Part shown: positions 7,451-64,000 of the stretch, one piece after another
How the letters are laid out: each line of letters opens with the position of its first letter
How positions within the stretch are numbered: the stretch's first letter is position 1
Assembly (NCBI GenBank): GCA_964407105.1
Contig: CAYOUG010000001.1
Span: forward strand, 164,273 to 228,272
DNA from: an uncultured Candidatus Saccharibacteria bacterium
Lineage (GTDB): Bacteria; Patescibacteriota; Minisyncoccia; Phycocordibacterales; CALRHW01
Reading direction: 5' to 3'
Length of the DNA: 64,000 bases
The notes under the pieces: generated by a model
What the model saw: only the letters and a program-made list of their open reading frames with translations
Database searches by the model: none
What the model was told of the DNA's origin: nothing
Program-made: the position numbers and the translations under genes

Positions 7451-7521
7451 TGCGGGATGGGAGAATCGAACTCCCAACCTCGGTTTGGAAAACCGATATT
7501 ATACCATTTAACCAATCCCGC
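7451..7521 (-). tRNA. tRNA-Gly (anticodon UCC)
   Basis: Cloverleaf folded by hand: acceptor GCGGGAT/ATCCCGC, anticodon loop TTTCCAA, T-loop GTTCGATTC. Confidence 0.85.
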
Positions 7522-7606
7522 TTGAGCGCCCGAGCACTATGTATTTCAAACGATCTCCAAACGAACAAGGGTTATACTAGCAAAAAAGTATATGCTAATC
7601 AATCTT

Positions 7607-7921
7607 TTACTGGTCGACTTTTTTCGTCTTCGCTATTTTAATAATCTCATCGAAATTATCTCTTGATGAAACCTTGTTTCTTTTGATCGCACCACATTTT
7701 TCACAAACAAAAACCAAATCATACTTCCCGACTATTCCCTCCACACCCACAGGCTTCATCATTCCCCCACAACCCGCTTCCCTGTCGCCAGGATGAATGT
7801 CCACATGCTTGCTCCACAAACATGTGGCGCAATGATTTGTAAAACCATTGCCGGCGTTTTCCGCATTACAGTGTTCGCATGTAAAATCTTCTTTACGTTT
7901 TTTAAATACTTCTGAGCTCAT
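7607..7921 (-). CDS. RNHCP-domain protein (zinc-ribbon-like)
   Basis: NHCATCLWSKHVD plus CEHC and CEKC pairs match the RNHCP domain signature. Confidence 0.65.
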   Translation of the reverse strand: MSSEVFKKRKEDFTCEHCNAENAGNGFTNHCATCLWSKHVDIHPGDREAGCGGMMKPVGVEGIVGKYDLVFVCEKCGAIKRNKVSSRDNFDEIIKIAKTKKVDQ

Positions 7922-7924
7922 ATG

Positions 7925-8548
7925 TTATCTCGGAGTTAAATTATACGTCCCTATCTGTACAGCAAACACAAGAAAAAGAAATACTACTGAAACATCGGTA
8001 AAAGACCACCACACTGCGCTTGTAGCCATTACACCAGCAAGATGAATATATTTCCACGGACATTTCATATGCAAAAGCACTGGAATAGTTTTCATTCCCT
8101 CTTCCCCGTCTTTTTTCACATCCCGCAGATCTCCAAGAAAATTTCTAATTAATGTAAGAGAAAACGCAAACAAAGAAAGCGGATTCAAATAACCAACAAT
8201 TCCAGCTGAAAGCACAAAATTTTGAGCTCCACGAAGAAAAGGACTAGCTACACCCCAATATGAATGTTTTTTCTTTGTATAAAGATAAGCCAAGAAAATA
8301 AAAAGAATTCCTTCTGTTTTTTTAAAGAGAAGCAAACCAGCCAAAAACAATACGTAATCAAGATATTTTGGTAATTTTGTCCTATAAGAATGCTTGTGTC
8401 CCAACTCCAAATGCGCCAAAAAACCAATCCATAAAAACAAAACACCCAAACCTTGAGCAAAAGTGGCTTGAGTAGCAAGCAAAAGCCACACAAGATCCAC
8501 AAGAGAATAAAGTCTTAATTGGCCTAAATAATTTAGAAAAACCTTCAT
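7925..8548 (-). CDS. UbiA-family prenyltransferase-like membrane protein, apparently lacking the N-terminal half
   Basis: Polytopic membrane protein carrying the second UbiA motif DLRDVKKDGEEGMKTIPV; start set at an internal Met because the longer ORF runs antisense through tRNA-Pro. Confidence 0.45.
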   Translation of the reverse strand: MKVFLNYLGQLRLYSLVDLVWLLLATQATFAQGLGVLFLWIGFLAHLELGHKHSYRTKLPKYLDYVLFLAGLLLFKKTEGILFIFLAYLYTKKKHSYWGVASPFLRGAQNFVLSAGIVGYLNPLSLFAFSLTLIRNFLGDLRDVKKDGEEGMKTIPVLLHMKCPWKYIHLAGVMATSAVWWSFTDVSVVFLFLVFAVQIGTYNLTPR

Positions 8549-8561
8549 ACCGTTAAAATAT

Positions 8562-8637
8562 TGGTCGGGGCGCCGGGATTCGAACCCGGAGTCACTTGTT
8601 CCCAAAACAAGCATGTTAGCCGTTACACCACGCCCCG
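8562..8637 (-). tRNA. tRNA-Pro (anticodon UGG), CCA encoded
   Basis: Hand fold: acceptor CGGGGCG, anticodon loop TTTGGGA, T-loop TTCGAAT, 3' CCA. Confidence 0.85.
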
Positions 8638-8729
8638 AAAATCGTTTTATAAAACAAAATCGCTAAAAACCAATGTAGGTTATACTAGCACACGAATTTA
8701 AAAATCGCTAACAAAAAATAATGAAAATA

Positions 8730-9209
8730 TTATACATTAATATTCTCTATAACAGACACTTTCGCTCGCCTAGTGGAAAAATCTAAAACAACTGTAATTC
8801 CGTCTATCTGAAGGGGTGTTTCATGTGGAACATGAAACTTAAGAAGATAGAGCTGAACTGTTTTTGAGAAACGTTCGAGTTTTCGAAAATGTATGTTTTC
8901 CTCTGCGCGATATGAGTTTTTCTTTGTTTGCTCATCGTCCCCCACCCTTTTTCTTTCACGTGAAACAGTTTTTACTTCAAAAAAGTGTAGGGTTTTGATA
9001 TTTTGACCATCTTTCGTGTGATTTTTTATAGCCATGATATCTATTTCTCCACATTTTTGCCTAAAATTTCTCCCAACAACCTGAAAACCTTGTTTCACAA
9101 GAAACTTACATGCGATTTCCTCTCCCAAGACACCAACCTTTAAATGATCTGGCTTTTTTGTTTCTATATCTGGTTTTTTTGTAATTTTTGCTCTTTTGTC
9201 ACGTTTCAT
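8730..9209 (-). CDS. yraN: YraN-family (UPF0102) endonuclease-like protein
   Basis: GEEIACKFLVKQGFQVVGRNFRQKCGEIDIMA matches the YraN N-terminal signature. Confidence 0.7.
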   Translation of the reverse strand: MKRDKRAKITKKPDIETKKPDHLKVGVLGEEIACKFLVKQGFQVVGRNFRQKCGEIDIMAIKNHTKDGQNIKTLHFFEVKTVSRERKRVGDDEQTKKNSYRAEENIHFRKLERFSKTVQLYLLKFHVPHETPLQIDGITVVLDFSTRRAKVSVIENINV

Positions 9210-9507
9210 GATTAACATTGTTTCACGTGAAACATATTTTGAGGTTATTTAATAAAAAATCCTTAATATAAGCCATATTTCAATGAAAGACAGTTTGTAA
9301 TAGACAGAAAAATACCTGTCTTTTATACACATGTCCCCAGAGTTATCCACAGTTTTAAGGGTTTTTACCCATCAATTGAGACAAAATAAAAGACTTAAAA
9401 CGTCACATCGAAAAAAGCGTCACGCGTATTTAGGACAAAACTAGGACAAAACATTATTTCAATAAAAAAACGTCGCTTAACCACCACACCAACACCGTCT
9501 ATAAAAA

Positions 9508-9581
9508 TGGTGCGGGCAGGGAGAATCGAACTCCCGTCTCGTCCTTGGCAAGGACGTGTTCTACCACTAAACCATGCCCGC
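9508..9581 (-). tRNA. tRNA-Gly (anticodon GCC), CCA encoded
   Basis: Hand fold: acceptor GCGGGCA, anticodon loop TTGCCAA, T-loop TTCGATTC. Confidence 0.85.
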
Positions 9582-9638
9582 AATGATGTAATTATAAAGA
9601 AAAGATAAAATATAATCTACCCATGTTAACAAATCTTG

Positions 9639-9710
9639 TGCTCTCGGAGGGATTCGAACCCCCAACAGCGGTTCCGAAGACCGACGTGATATCCATTTCA
9701 CCACGAGAGC
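9639..9710 (-). tRNA. tRNA-Arg (anticodon UCG)
   Basis: Hand fold: acceptor GCTCTCG, anticodon loop CTTCGGA (one mismatch in the anticodon stem), T-loop TTCGAAT. Confidence 0.8.
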
Positions 9711-9772: not shown

Positions 9773-11275
9773 ATGAAAAAAAACTCCAAAGCCGTCGAAG
9801 GTTCAGTGGTTTTTGCCTTCGATATTCCAAAAGAGGTTTCACATGTAACAAAAACTCTCGAGAGTGGGGGATTTGAAGCATTTCTCGTAGGAGGTTGCGT
9901 TCGTGACCTTATTTTAGGCCTTATTCCTAAAGATTGGGACGTCACAACAAATGCTACACCAGAAGAAATTATTGCTCTTTTTCCAAAAACATTTTACGAA
10001 AATACTTATGGAACGGTTGGGGTAGTAAACGAAGAAACAGAAGAAGGATCATTAAAAGTTATCGAGGTCACTCCATATAGGCTTGAAACGTCTTATACGG
10101 ACCACAGACGTCCAGACAGCGTAACATTCAGTAAAACACTCACAGATGATTTAAAACGTCGTGATTTCACGATTAACGCGATTGCACTAAATTCAAAAGG
10201 GGAGATTGTCGATCCGCACGAAGGATTAAAAGACATTTTGTCTAAAACAATTCGTACCGTAGGAAATGCAAAAGAACGCTTCAATGAAGATGCTTTGAGA
10301 ATTATGCGTGCGGTGCGTCTTTTTGCAGAACTAGATTTTACTATCGAACAAAACACATATGAAGCAATTCAAAAACTTGCTTCTACATTAGAAAAAATTG
10401 CCAAAGAACGTATTCGTGATGAATTTATAAAAATAATAATATCATCACAACCAGCAAGGGGGATAGAAATGGCTCAAAAGCTTGGTATTTTACGTTACAT
10501 TGTACCAGAACTCGAAGAGGGACTTGGTGTTAAACAAAATCAGGCTCATGCTTTTGATGTTTGGACACACCTAATGAAGACGCTTCAACACTCCGCGGAT
10601 AAAGAGTGGCCTTTGTACATTCGTCTTGCCGCACTGTTTCACGACGTAGGAAAACCAGCTACTCGACGCTTTGATAAAGCAAAAAACGATCCGACCTTTT
10701 ATGGTCATGAGGTGGTTGGAGCAAGAATGACTGAAAAAATTATGCAAAATTTGCGTTTTTCAAAAGATCTAACAGAAAGAGTTGTGAAACTCGTACGTTG
10801 GCACATGTTTTTCTCTGATACAGAACAAATCACACTCTCTGCTGTCCGTCGACTCGTTGCAAAAGTAGGAAAGGATAATGTGTGGGATCTCATGAACGTC
10901 CGAGTTTGCGATCGTATAGGCACAGGACGACCAAAAGAAAATCCATATCGTCTACGAAAATATAAATCAATGATAGAAGAGGTAATGCGCGATCCTGTAT
11001 CTGTGGGCATGCTTGCTATAGATGGAAAAAGTGTAATGGAAGCTGCTAAAATACCAGCCGGACCCAAAATCGGACATATTTTACATGCTCTTTTGGAGGA
11101 AGTACTAGAAGATCCGACACTAAATACAAAAGAATACTTGGGTAAAAAAGCTAATGAACTAGCCAAACTTTCAGAAAAAGAACTCGAAGAAATAGGTAAA
11201 AAGGGAAAAGAAAAAAAAGAAGAAGAGGATGAAAAAGATTTAAAAGAGATACGAGACAAATATCACGTAGAGTAG
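9773..11275 (+). CDS. cca: CCA-adding tRNA nucleotidyltransferase with HD domain and a Lys/Glu-rich C-terminal tail
   Basis: GGCVRDLILG..DWDVTT polymerase-beta head motif; HD domain; ends in a KEKKEEEDEKDLKE tail. Confidence 0.85.
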   Translation: MKKNSKAVEGSVVFAFDIPKEVSHVTKTLESGGFEAFLVGGCVRDLILGLIPKDWDVTTNATPEEIIALFPKTFYENTYGTVGVVNEETEEGSLKVIEVTPYRLETSYTDHRRPDSVTFSKTLTDDLKRRDFTINAIALNSKGEIVDPHEGLKDILSKTIRTVGNAKERFNEDALRIMRAVRLFAELDFTIEQNTYEAIQKLASTLEKIAKERIRDEFIKIIISSQPARGIEMAQKLGILRYIVPELEEGLGVKQNQAHAFDVWTHLMKTLQHSADKEWPLYIRLAALFHDVGKPATRRFDKAKNDPTFYGHEVVGARMTEKIMQNLRFSKDLTERVVKLVRWHMFFSDTEQITLSAVRRLVAKVGKDNVWDLMNVRVCDRIGTGRPKENPYRLRKYKSMIEEVMRDPVSVGMLAIDGKSVMEAAKIPAGPKIGHILHALLEEVLEDPTLNTKEYLGKKANELAKLSEKELEEIGKKGKEKKEEEDEKDLKEIRDKYHVE

Positions 11276-13448: not shown

Positions 13449-14831
13449 ATGCTAGAATATATTTTAATGATTTCTCAAGAGGTGATCGTTCTTATATTAT
13501 TTGTATTAAGCTGCGCACAACTTATCTTTCTCGTTCGAAAATTGAAGTGGTCAGTATTTAAACAAAATATGTCGTCATATTTAATGCCGACATTTTCGGT
13601 TGTAACTTTTTATCTCTCATTATTTGTGCTTTTTATCAGTATCATTGAAGGTGTTGTGTTTGTGTTGCTTCCATTGATTGGATATTCATTGTCAAGCCAT
13701 TTCTCTGTTATCCGTGGTAATGGTTGGGGTACTCTTCTATTTTTAATTTATATATTATACCCAACACTTATTCTGTACACTTTTTTTACAACACTTGGAT
13801 GTATAGGACTTTTTATACACAAAATCACATCAGGATCATGGAAACGTATGCCAATGTGGCTCGTTGCATTTCTTGTAAGTACAATTGCTCTTCTTTCGAT
13901 GTTTGGACTTGTGATTTTTGTTTCTGATTTTTTTGACAACGTCATACAACGTTGGATTTCAAAAACGCTTACCTTATTTTATCGTGAATACGATCATGCT
14001 CCGTCACCTTTCTCTATAGTTTTCATATATCTTATGTTTTTGATTCAGGCAATAATTTCAGTTGCATACGCTTTTCGTCTCCGGGGGAGAGCGTGGTTTT
14101 ATTGGTTTTTAGCATTAATACACTCCATCTCGTTTTTGATTAGTTTCGGTGTAAATTCTTTTTTTCCATATCTTTTTATCATTACTCCCGCTTCGATAAT
14201 TGCAGCAATCGTATACGCACTTCATGGTAGTATTCATCCAAAGAAAATTATTGTTACAGGACTTATTATGATTGGGGTGTGTGCAATTATTACAGGGACA
14301 ATGATTGGACCAAATATTGCATCGTTTATTCGATACGGTATTGCTGGAGAAATAACTCTGCATATTGATTGCCCAGAATGTGTTGGTGATTCTCAGGTGT
14401 ACAAAATGACTGAACTTATGTTGTGTTCAAAAAATACTCTTTCTCAGGTAATGGATGGTAAGTTATCTGATCCGACTGATTTTTACACGAGCACCAGACA
14501 AGAGTTTTCATTTCCTTTATGCAATGCTGGCGGTACATGCCTACCATTCACTTGTGCAGTAAACAAGCGAGGCAATACGGCGGTAATAGGACATGAATTT
14601 TATTCAAGACCAGAAGTATGCTCAACTATAAAAATCTTTGATTCGCGAACATGGACAGCAAAAAACTTTAATGAATTTAAAACTCCACAGAATTGCGAGC
14701 AAAAATGTAATTCTATTGTTACAGCAAATAATAACAATTTCTGTTTGGGGCGATCTTTTGAATCATACAGTTCTCCACACCCCTTTGTAGAAAAAGTGTA
14801 TACCTGCGGATGTGTTATTAATACTTTGTAA
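13449..14831 (+). CDS. polytopic membrane protein with a C-terminal Cys-rich extracytoplasmic domain
   Basis: About ten hydrophobic segments followed by a roughly 150-aa domain with more than ten Cys; no recognisable family. Confidence 0.5.
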   Translation: MLEYILMISQEVIVLILFVLSCAQLIFLVRKLKWSVFKQNMSSYLMPTFSVVTFYLSLFVLFISIIEGVVFVLLPLIGYSLSSHFSVIRGNGWGTLLFLIYILYPTLILYTFFTTLGCIGLFIHKITSGSWKRMPMWLVAFLVSTIALLSMFGLVIFVSDFFDNVIQRWISKTLTLFYREYDHAPSPFSIVFIYLMFLIQAIISVAYAFRLRGRAWFYWFLALIHSISFLISFGVNSFFPYLFIITPASIIAAIVYALHGSIHPKKIIVTGLIMIGVCAIITGTMIGPNIASFIRYGIAGEITLHIDCPECVGDSQVYKMTELMLCSKNTLSQVMDGKLSDPTDFYTSTRQEFSFPLCNAGGTCLPFTCAVNKRGNTAVIGHEFYSRPEVCSTIKIFDSRTWTAKNFNEFKTPQNCEQKCNSIVTANNNNFCLGRSFESYSSPHPFVEKVYTCGCVINTL

Positions 14832-14882: not shown

Positions 14883-15821
14883 ATGCTTGTGCTAGAATAT
14901 AAACATATGAAAACAACAATCATTACGCTTGTCATTATTATTATCGCGGGTTTAGGTTTTTATTTCTTTAGCCAAAAAAATTCAAATCAACAAAATTTAG
15001 TAACAGAACAAAACACACCAGTTACAGTTGTACCGCCCGTAGCTACCACAACTGAAGTAAAAGAACTTGCAAACGGCGAAACATTCGTTCTTGGCACATC
15101 AGTAGAAAAACGAGACATCGTTGCATACAATTTTGGTAAAGGAGACAAAGAACTTATTTTCATTGGAGGCATTCATGGTGGATATGCATGGAACACAGCT
15201 CTCTTGGGATACGAAATGGTTGATTATTTAACCAAAAATCCAAACACGATACCAGAAGGCACAAAAATAACAGTCGTTCCAGTATTAAATCCAGACGGTC
15301 TTTTTAAAACAGTTGGTACCTCAACCCGTTTTTCAGCAAAAGATGTTCCATCTTCTACAAGTTTACAAACCGCTGGACGTTTTAACGCAAACACCGTTGA
15401 TCTCAACCGCAATTTTGATTGTGATTGGCAAGCTTCTAGTAAATGGCAAAACAAAACAGTAAGCGGTGGCACCAAAGCTTTCTCAGAACCAGAAACACTT
15501 GCTCTTAAAAATTATGTAGAAAAAAACAAACCCGCAGCAGTGGTAGCATACTATAGTGCTGCCGGAGGAGTATTTGCATCAAATTGTCACAATGGCGTAT
15601 CAACAGAAACACAAGCACTCACAAAAGCTTACTCTGATGCGTCTGAATACAAGGCATACCAAGATTTCGATTTCTACGAAACAACAGGCGACATGACCAA
15701 CTGGCTAGCAAAAATTAACATTCCTGCAATCAGCGTTCTTCTTACAAATCACACAGACACTGAGTGGACAAAAAACAAAGCGGGTATCGACGCATTGTTA
15801 AAATATTTCTCTAACAAATAG
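14883..15821 (+). CDS. M14-like zinc-carboxypeptidase superfamily protein, probable inactive paralog
   Basis: Signal anchor; NPDG and DLNRNFDC motifs of the M14/AstE-AspA fold; HGGYAWN replaces HGGYEWN and the second His is missing; alternative start 14907. Confidence 0.55.
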   Translation: MLVLEYKHMKTTIITLVIIIIAGLGFYFFSQKNSNQQNLVTEQNTPVTVVPPVATTTEVKELANGETFVLGTSVEKRDIVAYNFGKGDKELIFIGGIHGGYAWNTALLGYEMVDYLTKNPNTIPEGTKITVVPVLNPDGLFKTVGTSTRFSAKDVPSSTSLQTAGRFNANTVDLNRNFDCDWQASSKWQNKTVSGGTKAFSEPETLALKNYVEKNKPAAVVAYYSAAGGVFASNCHNGVSTETQALTKAYSDASEYKAYQDFDFYETTGDMTNWLAKINIPAISVLLTNHTDTEWTKNKAGIDALLKYFSNK

Positions 15822-15827
15822 CAAGTA

Positions 15828-16712
15828 ATGGGATCAATTTCAATCAAGAAGATTCTTATACTTCTTTGTGTTGTATTTGTATTAGGTATTGGTGCGGTTA
15901 CAACGTTAAACCGCAAAAACACACCCACAGTAATTCAGCCGACAGTTGAAAAAGTTTCTGTTACATATCCAATAGAAAAAGTGATCGGTAAGTCGGTGGA
16001 AGGAAGAAATATTTCTGCATATACTTACGGAAACGGACAAAAAAATCTCGTTTTTGTAGGCGGTATTCATGGTGGCTATGAGTGGAACAGTGTTTTGCTC
16101 GCTTATGAATTCATGGATTATTTAAAAGCAAACCCCGCAATAATTCCAGAAAAAATTAAGGTGACCGTCATTCCGTCCCTAAATCCTGATGCGGTTTTTA
16201 AGGTTGTGAACAAAGAAGGACATTTTGTTGCAACAGACGTATCAAAAAATGAAGAACTTCTCTCCTCTGCACGTTTTAACACTCACAACGTAGACCTCAA
16301 TCGCAATTTTGATTGCAATTGGGCATCAACGAGCATGTGGAAATCAAAAGTAGTAAGCGCGGGTACTGCGCCACATTCTGAACCAGAAGCAAAAGCTTTT
16401 GTGGATTTTGCTCTTGCAGAAAAACCAGCAATGGTTCTTTTCTGGCATAGTCAAGCTGGTGCAGTGTATGCCTCTTTCTGTGATGGGGAAATTTTGCCTG
16501 AAACAGACACACTGTATAAAGCATACTCAGCGACTTCTGGATACAAAGCCGAAAAAACATTCACAAATTATTCAATCTCTGGTGACGCGGGGGATTGGCT
16601 TGCAAAAATTGGTATTCCCGCTATTTCTGTAGAGCTCACCGACCACCAAAACACTGAGTTTGAGCGAAACTTAAAGGGAATATTGGCGTTATTTGAATAC
16701 TTTAAGAAATAG
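15828..16712 (+). CDS. M14-like zinc-carboxypeptidase superfamily protein (murein-peptide peptidase-like)
   Basis: GGIHGGYEW, NPDA, DLNRNFDCNW and WHSQ motifs consistent with His-Glu-His ligands; tandem paralog of the upstream gene. Confidence 0.6.
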   Translation: MGSISIKKILILLCVVFVLGIGAVTTLNRKNTPTVIQPTVEKVSVTYPIEKVIGKSVEGRNISAYTYGNGQKNLVFVGGIHGGYEWNSVLLAYEFMDYLKANPAIIPEKIKVTVIPSLNPDAVFKVVNKEGHFVATDVSKNEELLSSARFNTHNVDLNRNFDCNWASTSMWKSKVVSAGTAPHSEPEAKAFVDFALAEKPAMVLFWHSQAGAVYASFCDGEILPETDTLYKAYSATSGYKAEKTFTNYSISGDAGDWLAKIGIPAISVELTDHQNTEFERNLKGILALFEYFKK

Positions 16713-16757
16713 AGGCTGGCGTTTGAACATCGTAAGAAAAACCCCCTAAAATGTGTT

Positions 16758-16831
16758 TCGAAAACCACGCATAAATCGCTGCTGCGATTTTGCTACGCTC
16801 GGCGCCGTTGCGCCTGCGCGATGCTTTTCTC
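16758..16831 (+). repeat. family B GC-rich element, copy B2
   Basis: Core ATCGCTGCTGCGATTTTGCT..CGCTCGGCGCCGTTGCGCCTGCGCGA shared with 61234-61306; embedded between a 20-bp inverted repeat (16737-16757 / 16832-16851). Confidence 0.75.
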
Positions 16832-16890
16832 AACATATTTTAGGGGGTTTTCTTGCATTTATATGGCATTTATGCTATTCTCATCACACA

Positions 16891-17163
16891 ATGCTTACGA
16901 AAACAAAGAAACAAAAGGTTATTGCGGTGGCAAAAATCCACGATGTGGATACGGGCTCACCGGAAGTTCAAATCGCCCTCCTTTCTAAAAGAATCGAGGA
17001 TTTAGCGGCTCATTTAAAGAAAAACACCAAAGATACTCATTCTCGACGTGGACTTCTTCAAATGGTGGCAGATCGCCAAAAGCACATGAAATATTTGCAG
17101 AAAAAGAGCACTAAACGCTTCAATGCAATCATGAAAAAGCTTGAACTCAAGAAAAAAGCCTAA
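16891..17163 (+). CDS. rpsO: 30S ribosomal protein S15
   Basis: 90-aa S15 (..HSRRGLLQMV..RQKHMKYL); the six-frame ORF starting at 16753 is an artefactual extension through element B2. Confidence 0.9.
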   Translation: MLTKTKKQKVIAVAKIHDVDTGSPEVQIALLSKRIEDLAAHLKKNTKDTHSRRGLLQMVADRQKHMKYLQKKSTKRFNAIMKKLELKKKA

Positions 17164-57511: not shown

Positions 57512-57584
57512 TCCGCCCACCAGGACTCGAACCTGGGACCAAGTGCTTAAAAGGCACCTGCTCTACCAACTGAGCTATAGGCGG
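57512..57584 (-). tRNA. tRNA-Lys (anticodon UUU)
   Basis: Hand fold: D-arm GCTCAGTTGGTAGAGC, anticodon loop CTTTTAA, T-loop GGTTCGAGTCC; unusual 5' C1 paired to G72. Confidence 0.85.
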
Positions 57585-63840: not shown

Positions 63841-63911
63841 TGCTCTCAGTAGGAATCGGACCTACATCGCAAGCTCCGCAAGCTCGCATTCTATCCATTG
63901 AACTATGAGAG
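63841..63911 (-). tRNA. tRNA-Arg (anticodon read as GCG; atypical T-loop)
   Basis: Hand fold: acceptor GCTCTCA, anticodon stem CGAGC/GCTTG with a G-U pair, loop TTGCGGA, T-loop TCCGATT (C at position 55). Confidence 0.65.
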
Positions 63912-64000
63912 CAAAAATATGTTCACGTTTTATCTATAGGAACACAAGCAGGGTATCACGAAAAAGTTAAAAACCCAAATACTCCATGAGTTTTTGTAGG

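Follow-up and report, generated by a model that had tools for sequence, protein, structure and literature searches.

A degenerate M14 carboxypeptidase paralog encoded directly upstream of its active-type copy across Parcubacteria-type Patescibacteria

Two neighboring genes in the window, by which we mean the whole 64-kb stretch of DNA analyzed here, encode related carboxypeptidases, one of which appears to have lost residues needed for catalysis. What is such a degenerate copy kept for, and does it act with its neighbor? A preliminary description had read the two as tandem M14-like paralogs forming an enzyme/pseudoenzyme pair. Both open reading frames are present on the forward strand, copy 1 at 14883..15821 (312 amino acids [aa], counted from the first ATG) and copy 2 at 15828..16712 (294 aa), separated by a junction (15819..15830, + strand) that consists of the TAG stop codon of copy 1, the 6-nucleotide (nt) spacer CAAGTA, and the ATG of copy 2. 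Translation of copy 1 probably starts at M9 (ATG at 14907), because orthologs begin there.

The two proteins are 45% identical over approximately 300 residues (BLASTP, E value 2e-93) and share the motifs GGIHGGY.WN, NPDG/NPDA, and DLNRNFDC, as had been noted from their translations. They belong to the M14 family with its carboxypeptidase alpha/beta fold, scoring 76.6 bits (copy 1) and 77.2 bits (copy 2) against Pfam Peptidase_M14 (PF00246; gathering cutoff, 21.6). Neither copy reaches the cutoff of the AstE/AspA deacylase family (PF24827; 13.0 and 13.5 bits against a gathering cutoff of 25) or of the MpaA equivalog model (NCBIfam NF007897; 40.9 and 32.5 bits against 157, with the match confined to the C-terminal half). 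No propeptide family corresponding to an M14A-type N-terminal activation pro-domain was matched in either copy, the N terminus consisting instead of a hydrophobic helix and a short linker. The closest structural neighbors of the pair are the digestive-type enzymes CPB, CPA, and CPT, of which CPB and CPT match best.

Residue equivalences in CPA numbering were obtained by profile alignment with solved M14 structures (PDB), in which H81, E85, H207, and E269 of copy 2 correspond to H69, E72, H196, and E270. The stretch H81-G-G-Y-E85 (16068..16082, +) would thus provide the zinc ligands H69 and E72 with an H-x3-E spacing, H207 (16446..16448, +) the third zinc ligand, and E269 (16632..16634, +) the catalytic general base. 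With this full set of zinc and catalytic residues, copy 2 is predicted to be an active-type M14 metallocarboxypeptidase, and the H/E/H/E signature is found in 121/121 orthologs of the active clade to which it belongs. Canonical HxxE spacing is absent from both copies and from most subfamily representatives, which show HxxxE instead (H-G-G-Y-E/x; HGGYEW is common across the subfamily), and the HMMER alignment places a one-residue gap at this site against “H-AREW” of CPB.

Copy 1 presents H98, A102, Y224, and L286 at the same four positions and thus lacks the active M14 set. Within H98-G-G-Y-A102 (15174..15188, +) the first ligand His is retained and the E72 equivalent is replaced by Ala, a position occupied by Glu in 50, Ser in 22, and Ala in 6 of 80 orthologs of the degenerate clade. 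Y224 (15552..15554, +) stands in place of the third zinc ligand, with Tyr in 75 and Phe in 5 of the 80 orthologs compared to His in 76/76 sequences of the active clade. Finally, L286 (15738..15740, +), aligned to the “ITMEL”/“TFEM” motif of CPB/CPT, takes the place of general base E270, so that SVELT in copy 2 reads SVLLT in copy 1; here the degenerate clade has Leu (78) or Ile (2) and the active clade Glu (76/76). Overall, the signature H, E/S/A, Y/F, L/I holds in 121/121 degenerate sequences. There is also a second degenerate lineage, in which H196 is replaced by Glu or Gly and E270 by Leu. With Leu in place of the general base and Tyr or Phe in place of the third zinc ligand, the upstream protein is, as judged from its residues, incapable of canonical M14 Zn/Glu270 hydrolysis. 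The label “M14 family zinc carboxypeptidase/metallopeptidase,” given to both clades in public annotation, is wrong for the upstream clade. The preliminary description had deduced His-Glu-His zinc ligation from HGGYEW and WHSQ in the downstream copy and the loss of Glu and the second His from HGGYAW and YYSA in the upstream copy. The alignment bears out these assignments rather than other residues conserved in both copies; the exchange of the catalytic Glu for L286 had been overlooked.

In M14 enzymes, N144, R145, and Y248 grip the C-terminal carboxylate of the substrate. Equivalents of all three are present in copy 2 (N158, R159, and Y248) and in copy 1 (N175, R176, and Y265), R145 and Y248 being invariant in both clades. 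The pair N175-R176 of copy 1 (15405..15410, +) is kept throughout the degenerate clade, with R145 in 80/80 and N144 in 74/80 orthologs. Y265...D270 (15675..15692, +), which corresponds to positions 248 to 253 and preserves the wall of the S1' pocket, is followed by the clade-specific residues M271, T272, and N273; the Y248 and D253 equivalents are invariant in all 80 degenerate orthologs. Across 19 binding positions, placed in CPA numbering by sequence offsets and not by superposed coordinates, the mean entropy of the degenerate clade is 0.54 bits against a domain mean of 0.96 bits (permutation P of ~0.01). Though constrained, this pocket differs in composition from that of the active clade. 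Position 255 of the active clade is acidic (Glu in 65 and Asp in 8 of 76), as in the basic-specific CPB, and the pocket of the pseudoenzyme is hydrophobic (Val255, Phe247, and Met254), with a clade-specific His (H236) nearby in 64/80 orthologs.

To place the pair among its relatives, we sampled the best 80 of at least 591 matches and the best 80 of at least 477 matches. The degenerate gene lies immediately upstream of the active gene in 148/148 informative loci of Parcubacteria-type Patescibacteria, comprising 77/77 informative genome loci (80 different species) and 71/71 informative metagenome loci, the latter retrieved with active-clade seeds. An active gene standing alone was not seen in the sampled loci wherever 700 nt or more of upstream sequence was present. 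Among 77 measured junctions of genome loci, 42 show the stop/start overlap TAATG and 66 a distance of 12 nt or less. We thus observe adjacent, co-oriented, and co-inherited active and degenerate paralogs, as in Csd1-Csd2 (see below), in an order that is always degenerate, then active: two genes conserved as a module in Parcubacteria-type Patescibacteria, not a product of decay. Together with the residue mapping, this supports the original reading of an enzyme/pseudoenzyme pair.

From synteny and translational coupling we infer that the two proteins probably interact physically. The best overall explanation, which we hold to be somewhat better than an even bet, is an anchored pair in which the pseudoenzyme is a noncatalytic partner of the enzyme, with the peptidoglycan stem peptide as substrate. 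Alternatively, the two could serve the same pathway without forming a complex, the pseudoenzyme being a stand-alone tethered receptor or sensor (of a peptidoglycan fragment or a peptide C terminus) or a shield that keeps some stems from being trimmed, co-expressed for dosage only. That the clamp is kept while the pocket is conserved yet differently lined suggests a ligand other than the substrate of the enzyme, and none of 150 representatives is a fusion of a degenerate with an active domain; the proteins P0327 and P0342, considered as Rosetta-stone fusions, each carry two M14 domains, both of the active type. However, genes that adjoin without exception (148/148 loci) and often overlap at stop and start are the usual mark of subunits made in a constant ratio, and dosage by itself seldom keeps gene order intact at such divergence when all other neighbors are shuffled. 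We consider action without a complex unlikely, at roughly one chance in five.

The partner reading places both proteins outside the cytoplasm. Each carries a single hydrophobic helix at its N terminus and two Cys residues that are invariant. The anchor of copy 1 comprises residues 11 to 29 (TTIITLVIIIIAGLGFYFF; 14913..14969, +; Kyte-Doolittle 19-residue mean, 2.36) and that of copy 2 residues 9 to 27 (ILILLCVVFVLGIGAVTTL; 15852..15908, +; mean, 2.85), each being the sole such segment of its protein; the structural models show them as helices 7 to 35 and 6 to 30, respectively. In copy 1, residues 35 to 59 form a disordered Thr/Pro/Val-rich linker (pLDDT of <50 in the model). Membrane-anchored, extracytoplasmic proteins are the best reading of this layout.

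Peptidoglycan is the likely substrate of the pair, since close active relatives carry LysM and VanY genes flank the pair. Of 10 longer active relatives (40 to 48% identical), 6 carry LysM and one is an M23-LysM-M14 fusion, and VanY (PF02557, 114.9 bits), a D-Ala-D-Ala carboxypeptidase, is encoded in the fetched flanks of 33/160 loci (18/80 plus 15/80), mostly abutting the pair directly. One JGI annotation and several source annotations also call relatives g-D-glutamyl-meso-diaminopimelate peptidase, by annotation only. These same observations speak against substrates other than the wall, according to which the pair would salvage amino acids from peptides of environmental or host origin, or process the C termini of surface proteins, with the degenerate copy as a peptide-binding partner. 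Such a role would fit structural neighbors that are digestive carboxypeptidases, with no known peptidoglycan peptidase among them, the missed MpaA equivalog threshold, and the finding of neither LysM nor any other wall-binding domain in either window protein; for scavenging in particular, the bacteria concerned are auxotrophs. On balance, we regard non-wall substrates as improbable, with odds no better than those of a single die roll.

A third alternative, which we judge very unlikely, is that copy 1 is still an enzyme with a noncanonical apparatus, for example, another metal site (H98, Y224, and the clade-specific H236) or other chemistry. H69 is invariant, Tyr is able to ligate metals, and H236 lies near a strongly conserved pocket. 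However, the general base is always aliphatic, the E72 equivalent is Ser, Ala, or Gly in 30/80 orthologs, Phe (incapable of metal ligation) occupies position 196 in 5/80, and H236 is not invariant. Because of the aliphatic base, the free E72 position, Phe196, and the variable H236, the metal site of the degenerate clade appears relaxed.

The conservation of the degenerate protein does not stop at its pocket. Mean identity is 68.1% within the degenerate clade and 65.0% within the active clade, the degenerate clade showing the higher conservation in 75% of species pairs, a comparison made on proteins with synonymous sites saturated at a protein divergence of at least 28%. Purifying selection on the upstream protein is thus no weaker than on its partner. 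Identity between the clades is 52.2% within the same genome and 51.8% across genomes, which points toward one ancient duplication, predating the species radiation, without gene conversion. A mirror-tree-style comparison of the distances within each clade, made without a control gene, gives only a moderate correlation (r = 0.41). Although tandem paralogs often originate in this way, a decaying duplicate or nascent pseudogene, left adjacent by a recent tandem duplication, is refuted by reading frames intact in 80/80 genome loci and in every complete metagenome copy, by the higher conservation of the degenerate clade, and by the age of the duplication.

The partner reading can be put as a mechanism. 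Two extracytoplasmic proteins of the M14 fold, each tethered by one N-terminal helix, would be made in a constant ratio by coupled translation and would cooperate, most probably within one complex. The active subunit would take the C-terminal diamino acid (Lys or DAP) off the tripeptide stem, acting like a gamma-D-Glu-diamino-acid DL-carboxypeptidase, with Glu or Asp at position 255 as in CPB; this acidic residue is the only indirect support for gamma-D-Glu-(L)-diamino acid cleavage by the active clade. The pseudoenzyme would be a noncatalytic ligand-binding or regulatory subunit that targets, gates, or stabilizes the active carboxypeptidase, and its hydrophobic pocket (Val255, Phe247, and Met254) could bind a different stem terminus. 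In a more specific and tentative version, to which we give perhaps three chances in ten, the pseudoenzyme is an obligate-subunit “reader” of one stem state (e.g., D-Ala terminated) that targets or gates its coupled twin, which trims tripeptides. Such a reader would have preserved the carboxylate clamp and acquired a hydrophobic S1' pocket of its own for recognizing that state. If so, the reader would in effect substitute for the LysM targeting domain of related enzymes.

Degenerate paralogs that control cell wall hydrolases are an established theme, represented by the LytM factors EnvC and NlpD and by Csd2. In the Csd1-Csd2 system of Helicobacter pylori, an M23B/LytM peptidoglycan peptidase is likewise partnered by a degenerate paralog; that pair has another fold, belongs to the LytM/M23 family instead of M14, and comes from another phylum, and its heterodimer has been demonstrated by crystallography, whereas the M14 interaction is deduced from synteny and translational coupling. 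The M14 family had stood outside this theme. Peptidoglycan-trimming M14 enzymes do exist, namely, MpaA (a murein tripeptide amidase), Csd4/Pgp1 (DL-carboxypeptidases), and the LysM-bearing M14C type, from which the window pair differs by its low MpaA scores (32 to 41 bits versus 157), its lack of LysM, and its H-x3-E spacing; in addition, the pair is predicted to be membrane anchored and MpaA is cytoplasmic. We know of no dedicated degenerate partner for any of these enzymes.

The M14 pseudopeptidases cataloged in a 2024 review are all eukaryotic, with no bacterial member named (PMC11266112). AEBP1/ACLP, CPXM1, CPXM2, CPD domain III, and yeast Ecm14 have lost zinc ligands and/or E270 while keeping the fold, and all five have also lost R145 (replaced by E, H, N, T, and H, respectively) (PMC11266112). 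In contrast, R145 and Y248 persist in the degenerate clade described here, as N144 nearly always does, and the eukaryotic proteins show no operon pairing with an active paralog, their roles being collagen binding or unknown. A prokaryotic arrangement of this kind is seen in the two-gene M16B alpha/beta operons (MPP-like), which encode an active metallopeptidase and an inactive homologous subunit that helps to bind the substrate (PMC11266112). That pair has an unrelated fold and chemistry, forms a clamshell heterodimer, and acts on peptides in the cytoplasm or periplasm, with no link to the wall. Searches of the open-access literature for a bacterial M14 pseudoenzyme, for pseudopeptidases with peptidoglycan, and for Parcubacteria carboxypeptidases returned nothing relevant, absence there being no proof.

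What sets this degenerate M14 protein apart is that it keeps the Arg145 anchor, is more conserved than its active partner, and is inseparable from it in at least several hundred Paceibacteria-type species (148/148 informative loci in the two samples of 80 best matches described above). Paceibacteria-type Patescibacteria have very small genomes with little redundancy, which makes a dispensable function unlikely for an inseparable pair. The pair therefore offers a concrete handle on wall remodeling in an uncultured phylum. Should the proposed role hold, the degenerate copy would be the first M14 pseudopeptidase of bacterial origin, kept as an obligate subunit and not as a relic. Being universal in a major lineage of minimal-genome Patescibacteria, it would also be a core, previously unrecognized element of wall remodeling in these ultrasmall bacteria.

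The surroundings of the pair are far less constant. In the window it follows, as the preliminary description had stated, a 10-TM protein with a Cys-rich ectodomain (460 aa; approximately 10 hydrophobic segments; 12 Cys within the C-terminal 155 residues). This protein was considered as a further partner and set aside, as it has no BLASTP match in the open reading frames of 80 related loci; the same search found no match for the neighbors XerC, Xth, CCA, rpsO, orf331, DksA-like, and ComM, and only two for the NYN neighbor, both nonadjacent to the pair. None of the flanking genes of the window is thus conserved beside the pair in relatives. All-versus-all clustering of flanking open reading frames revealed no universally conserved third gene, its second-largest cluster consisting of antisense shadow open reading frames of the M14 genes. 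VanY is the only recurrent true neighbor (18/80 loci in the clustering set), with none encoded in the 64-kb window. Promoter-like matches were no more common than in shuffles (10 versus 13.0). Finally, a terminator-like hairpin at 16806..16823 (+; consensus scan only), between the stop of copy 2 (16712) and the probable rpsO start (16891), may perhaps mark the end of the transcription unit.

The M14 pair consists of two co-oriented open reading frames, copy 1 (14883..15821, 312 aa) and copy 2 (15828..16712, 294 aa), with a TAG stop and 6 bases between them. The two proteins are 45% identical over their full length (BLASTP, E 2e-93). Both pass the gathering score of Pfam Peptidase_M14 (76.6 and 77.2 bits, cutoff 21.6), and both remain below threshold for the AstE/AspA family (13 bits, cutoff 25) and for the NCBIfam MpaA equivalog (41 and 33 bits, cutoff 157). 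Neither a further M14 gene nor a VanY gene was found in the 64-kb window. The longest copy 1 ORF opens at ATG 14883, but ortholog alignments begin at M9 (ATG 14907, MKTTII...), which is probably where translation starts and would give a protein of 304 aa. The genome is low in GC (about 38%), and both proteins recur without any difference in a metagenome run and on an NCBI contig of 284 kb. Near homologs belong to Paceibacterota, Zambryskibacteria, Kaiserbacteria, Adlerbacteria, Nomurabacteria, and similar Parcubacteria-type Patescibacteria, within a subfamily of 279 clusters (50% identity, E <= 1e-30). Orthologs of copy 1 (here, the dead clade) and of copy 2 (the live clade) share one public annotation name, "M14 family zinc carboxypeptidase/metallopeptidase."

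A profile built from 56 sequences of the copy 2 clade aligns along almost the entire domain with CPB and CPT chains of known structure. GGIHGGYEW aligns with GIHA-REW (H69 and E72 in CPA numbering, with one additional residue between them), DLNRNFD with DGNRNFD (N144 and R145), WHSQ with LHSY (H196), Y..GD..W with Y..GG..W (Y248), and ITVEL with ITMEL (E270). By this alignment, copy 2 carries H81, E85, and H207 at the zinc ligands H69, E72, and H196, and E269 at the general base E270; copy 1 has H98, A102, Y224, and L286. The zinc ligands are thus those named in the preliminary description, and the M14 alignment revealed no different ligands common to both copies. The ligand losses listed there for copy 1 stand, but the list was incomplete, as the general base is lost too. 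The first two ligand positions are spaced H-x3-E (HGGYEW; window positions 16068-16082 and 15174-15188) as opposed to the canonical M14 HxxE. Most of the subfamily representatives (P0241-P0390), including LysM-fused relatives, have this spacing, which is therefore a subfamily hallmark and no local oddity.

Copy 1 shares 58-72% identity with its best 120 database homologs, more than with copy 2. All of them have Tyr/Phe at position 196 and Leu/Ile at position 270, while position 72 varies freely (E 82, S 27, A 12). For copy 2, the best 120 homologs show H/E/H/E without exception. In 76 species that yielded both genes, catalytic domains of the dead clade are on average 68.1% identical to one another in pairwise comparison and those of the live clade 65.0%; in 75% of species pairs, conservation is higher for the dead clade. 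Dead-live paralog identity is the same within (52.2%) and between (51.8%) genomes, pointing to a single duplication before the species' radiation and excluding gene conversion. The Y/F-L group is monophyletic in a neighbor-joining (NJ) tree of 50%-identity representatives. Judged from the clade-wide residue pattern, conservation, old duplication, and monophyly, the upstream gene is a long-maintained pseudoenzyme rather than a decaying copy.

A scan for the dead-clade motif across one genome per GTDB species gave at least 591 coding matches, of which the best 80 loci, from 80 species, were examined. The live gene follows immediately on the same strand in 77, and the remaining three contigs stop within 350 nt past the dead gene. 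In the reciprocal scan of metagenome contigs with a live-clade seed, a degenerate gene lies directly upstream of the live gene in 71 of 71 informative loci, among which no solo live gene was seen; the upstream copy of one (L115) keeps H196 and has E72->A and E270->L. Left out of the 71 were eight loci with <700 nt of upstream sequence and one match that proved to be a dead copy, at the end of its contig. The pair is conserved in relatives at every informative locus, genomic or metagenomic. Of the 77 genomic junctions, 42 have a stop codon that overlaps the start codon (TAATG), 5 more abut, and 66 are spaced by <=12 nt (the window's gap is 6 nt); the two genes are usually translationally coupled. 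None of nine neighboring window genes (including a 10-TM Cys-rich protein, XerC/D, Xth, rpsO, and NYN) travels with the pair elsewhere, and clustering of all flanking ORFs yielded no other universal neighbor. With tight junctions and unconserved neighbors, the pair is an autonomous two-gene unit, mobile within the genome.

Each protein has one strongly hydrophobic segment, at the N terminus (KD 2.36 in copy 1, 2.85 in copy 2), which structure models predict as a long helix followed by a low-confidence Thr/Pro/Val-rich linker. Two Cys per protein are invariant in both clades. From sequence and models we infer that both proteins are type-II anchored in the membrane and keep their catalytic-fold domains on the extracellular side. 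The dead clade retains invariant equivalents of R145 and Y248, and N144 in 74/80. No variation was seen either at Asp253 or at an Arg particular to the family (R166 in copy 1, R149 in copy 2). Across 19 noncatalytic pocket positions, placed by motif offsets from CPA numbering, mean entropy is 0.54 bits versus 0.96 for the domain in the dead clade (permutation P about 0.011) and 0.65 versus 1.09 bits in the live clade (P about 0.017). By this measure, the dead-clade pocket is constrained at least as much as that of the live clade. By sequence alignment, the clades differ at CPA positions 208 (dead mostly His, live Glu/Lys), 247 (Phe, Ala/Ser), 254 (Met, Ala), 255 (Val/Thr, Glu/Asp), and 256 (Asn, Gly/Asp). 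The preference of CPB for basic C-terminal residues comes from an acidic residue at 255. Position 255, acidic in the live clade and Val/Thr in the dead clade, fits a live enzyme acting on C-terminal Lys or diaminopimelate and a dead copy binding a different, less polar terminus.

At the sequence level, then, a live M14 enzyme is co-inherited at all informative loci with a dead paralog that keeps a constrained pocket. The functional core, comprising complex formation and substrate, we infer as follows. The two proteins would act together, most likely as a heteromer, in which the live subunit would trim the stem peptide and the dead subunit would bind a stem-peptide terminus and target, gate, or stabilize its partner. 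The dead subunit may functionally stand in for the LysM module of related enzymes. A rival reading takes the dead copy as a stand-alone receptor that forms no complex with the live copy.

The link of the pair to peptidoglycan is indirect and comes from three sources. First, LysM lies directly N-terminal to M14 in 6 of 10 longer active-type representatives (40-48% identity), and one such representative is an M23-LysM-M14 fusion. Second, a VanY-type D-Ala-D-Ala carboxypeptidase gene (PF02557, 114.9 bits) occurs within the fetched flanks of 18/80 genome and 15/80 metagenome loci (including L004, L009, L017, L023, L031, L034, L048, L051, L053, L064, L072, and L077, and further L086, L096, L107, L118, and L129). 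It abuts the pair directly in most of these 33 of 160 loci, upstream or downstream and usually on the same strand, and this VanY/M15-type neighbor carries an N-terminal anchor and a coiled-coil region. Third, structural neighbors include MpaA and Csd4, which are peptidoglycan tripeptide peptidases. Against a wall link, and in keeping with the rival that the pair acts on a non-wall substrate, the top structural neighbors are digestive-type enzymes, and a wall-binding domain was not found in either window protein.

That copy 1 is a cryptic enzyme with an alternative catalytic mechanism is disfavored, as position 270 is aliphatic in every ortholog, position 196 is Phe in some, and position 72 varies freely. 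Simple decay of copy 1 is refuted by the greater conservation of the dead clade and a duplication older than the species' radiation.

The closest precedent in logic for a live-dead heteromer is Helicobacter pylori Csd1-Csd2, a LytM peptidase and its metal-less paralog (PMC5053510); there the heterodimer was seen by crystallography, whereas here the heteromer is a proposed one. M16B alpha/beta operons provide a further precedent (PMC11266112). That a wall hydrolase can have a dead paralog as its partner is thus already known. The five M14 pseudopeptidases given in a 2024 review of pseudoenzymes among metallopeptidases (PMC11266112) are all from eukaryotes and all lack R145, which the dead clade keeps; the review makes no mention of a bacterial one. 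Full-text literature searches found no report of a bacterial M14 pseudoenzyme or of such pairing in Patescibacteria. An M14 instance with a kept substrate clamp and obligate operon coupling, in a major uncultured lineage, appears to be undescribed.

A second degenerate lineage exists outside the window (representatives P0361, P0369, P0376, P0377, P0380, and P0384), with H196->Glu/Gly, E72->Ala/Val, and E270->Leu, and with N144/R145 kept. It is separately monophyletic in the NJ tree and nearest to long LysM-type actives, away from the copy 1 clade, and its loss of catalysis is therefore probably independent and convergent. In two other representatives, P0327 (636 aa) and P0342 (739 aa), one polypeptide chain contains two M14 domains in tandem. 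Each domain has a complete H/E/H/E set, with HGGYE in the first and the canonical HGDE in the second, and the sequence at the end of P0327 looks LysM-like by eye. These proteins suggest that side-by-side M14 modules acting on the wall are a recurring arrangement.

Upstream of the pair, 13449-14831 (+) encodes a 460-aa protein with ~10 hydrophobic segments and 12 Cys in its C-terminal ~155 residues, without a Pfam or NCBIfam match. As none of 80 related genomes has it beside the M14 pair, the adjacency in the window is incidental. Downstream, a 136-aa GTG ORF at 16753-17163 (+) is an over-extended call; the part encoding ribosomal protein S15 (rpsO), recognized by eye, most likely begins at ATG 16891, with a promoter-like site (16723-16752) and a terminator-like hairpin (16806-16823) 5' of the start. 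Four clustered tRNA genes (7451-9710, minus strand) lie just upstream of the CCA-adding enzyme gene (9773-11275), and two more tRNAs are located at 57512-57584 and 63841-63912.
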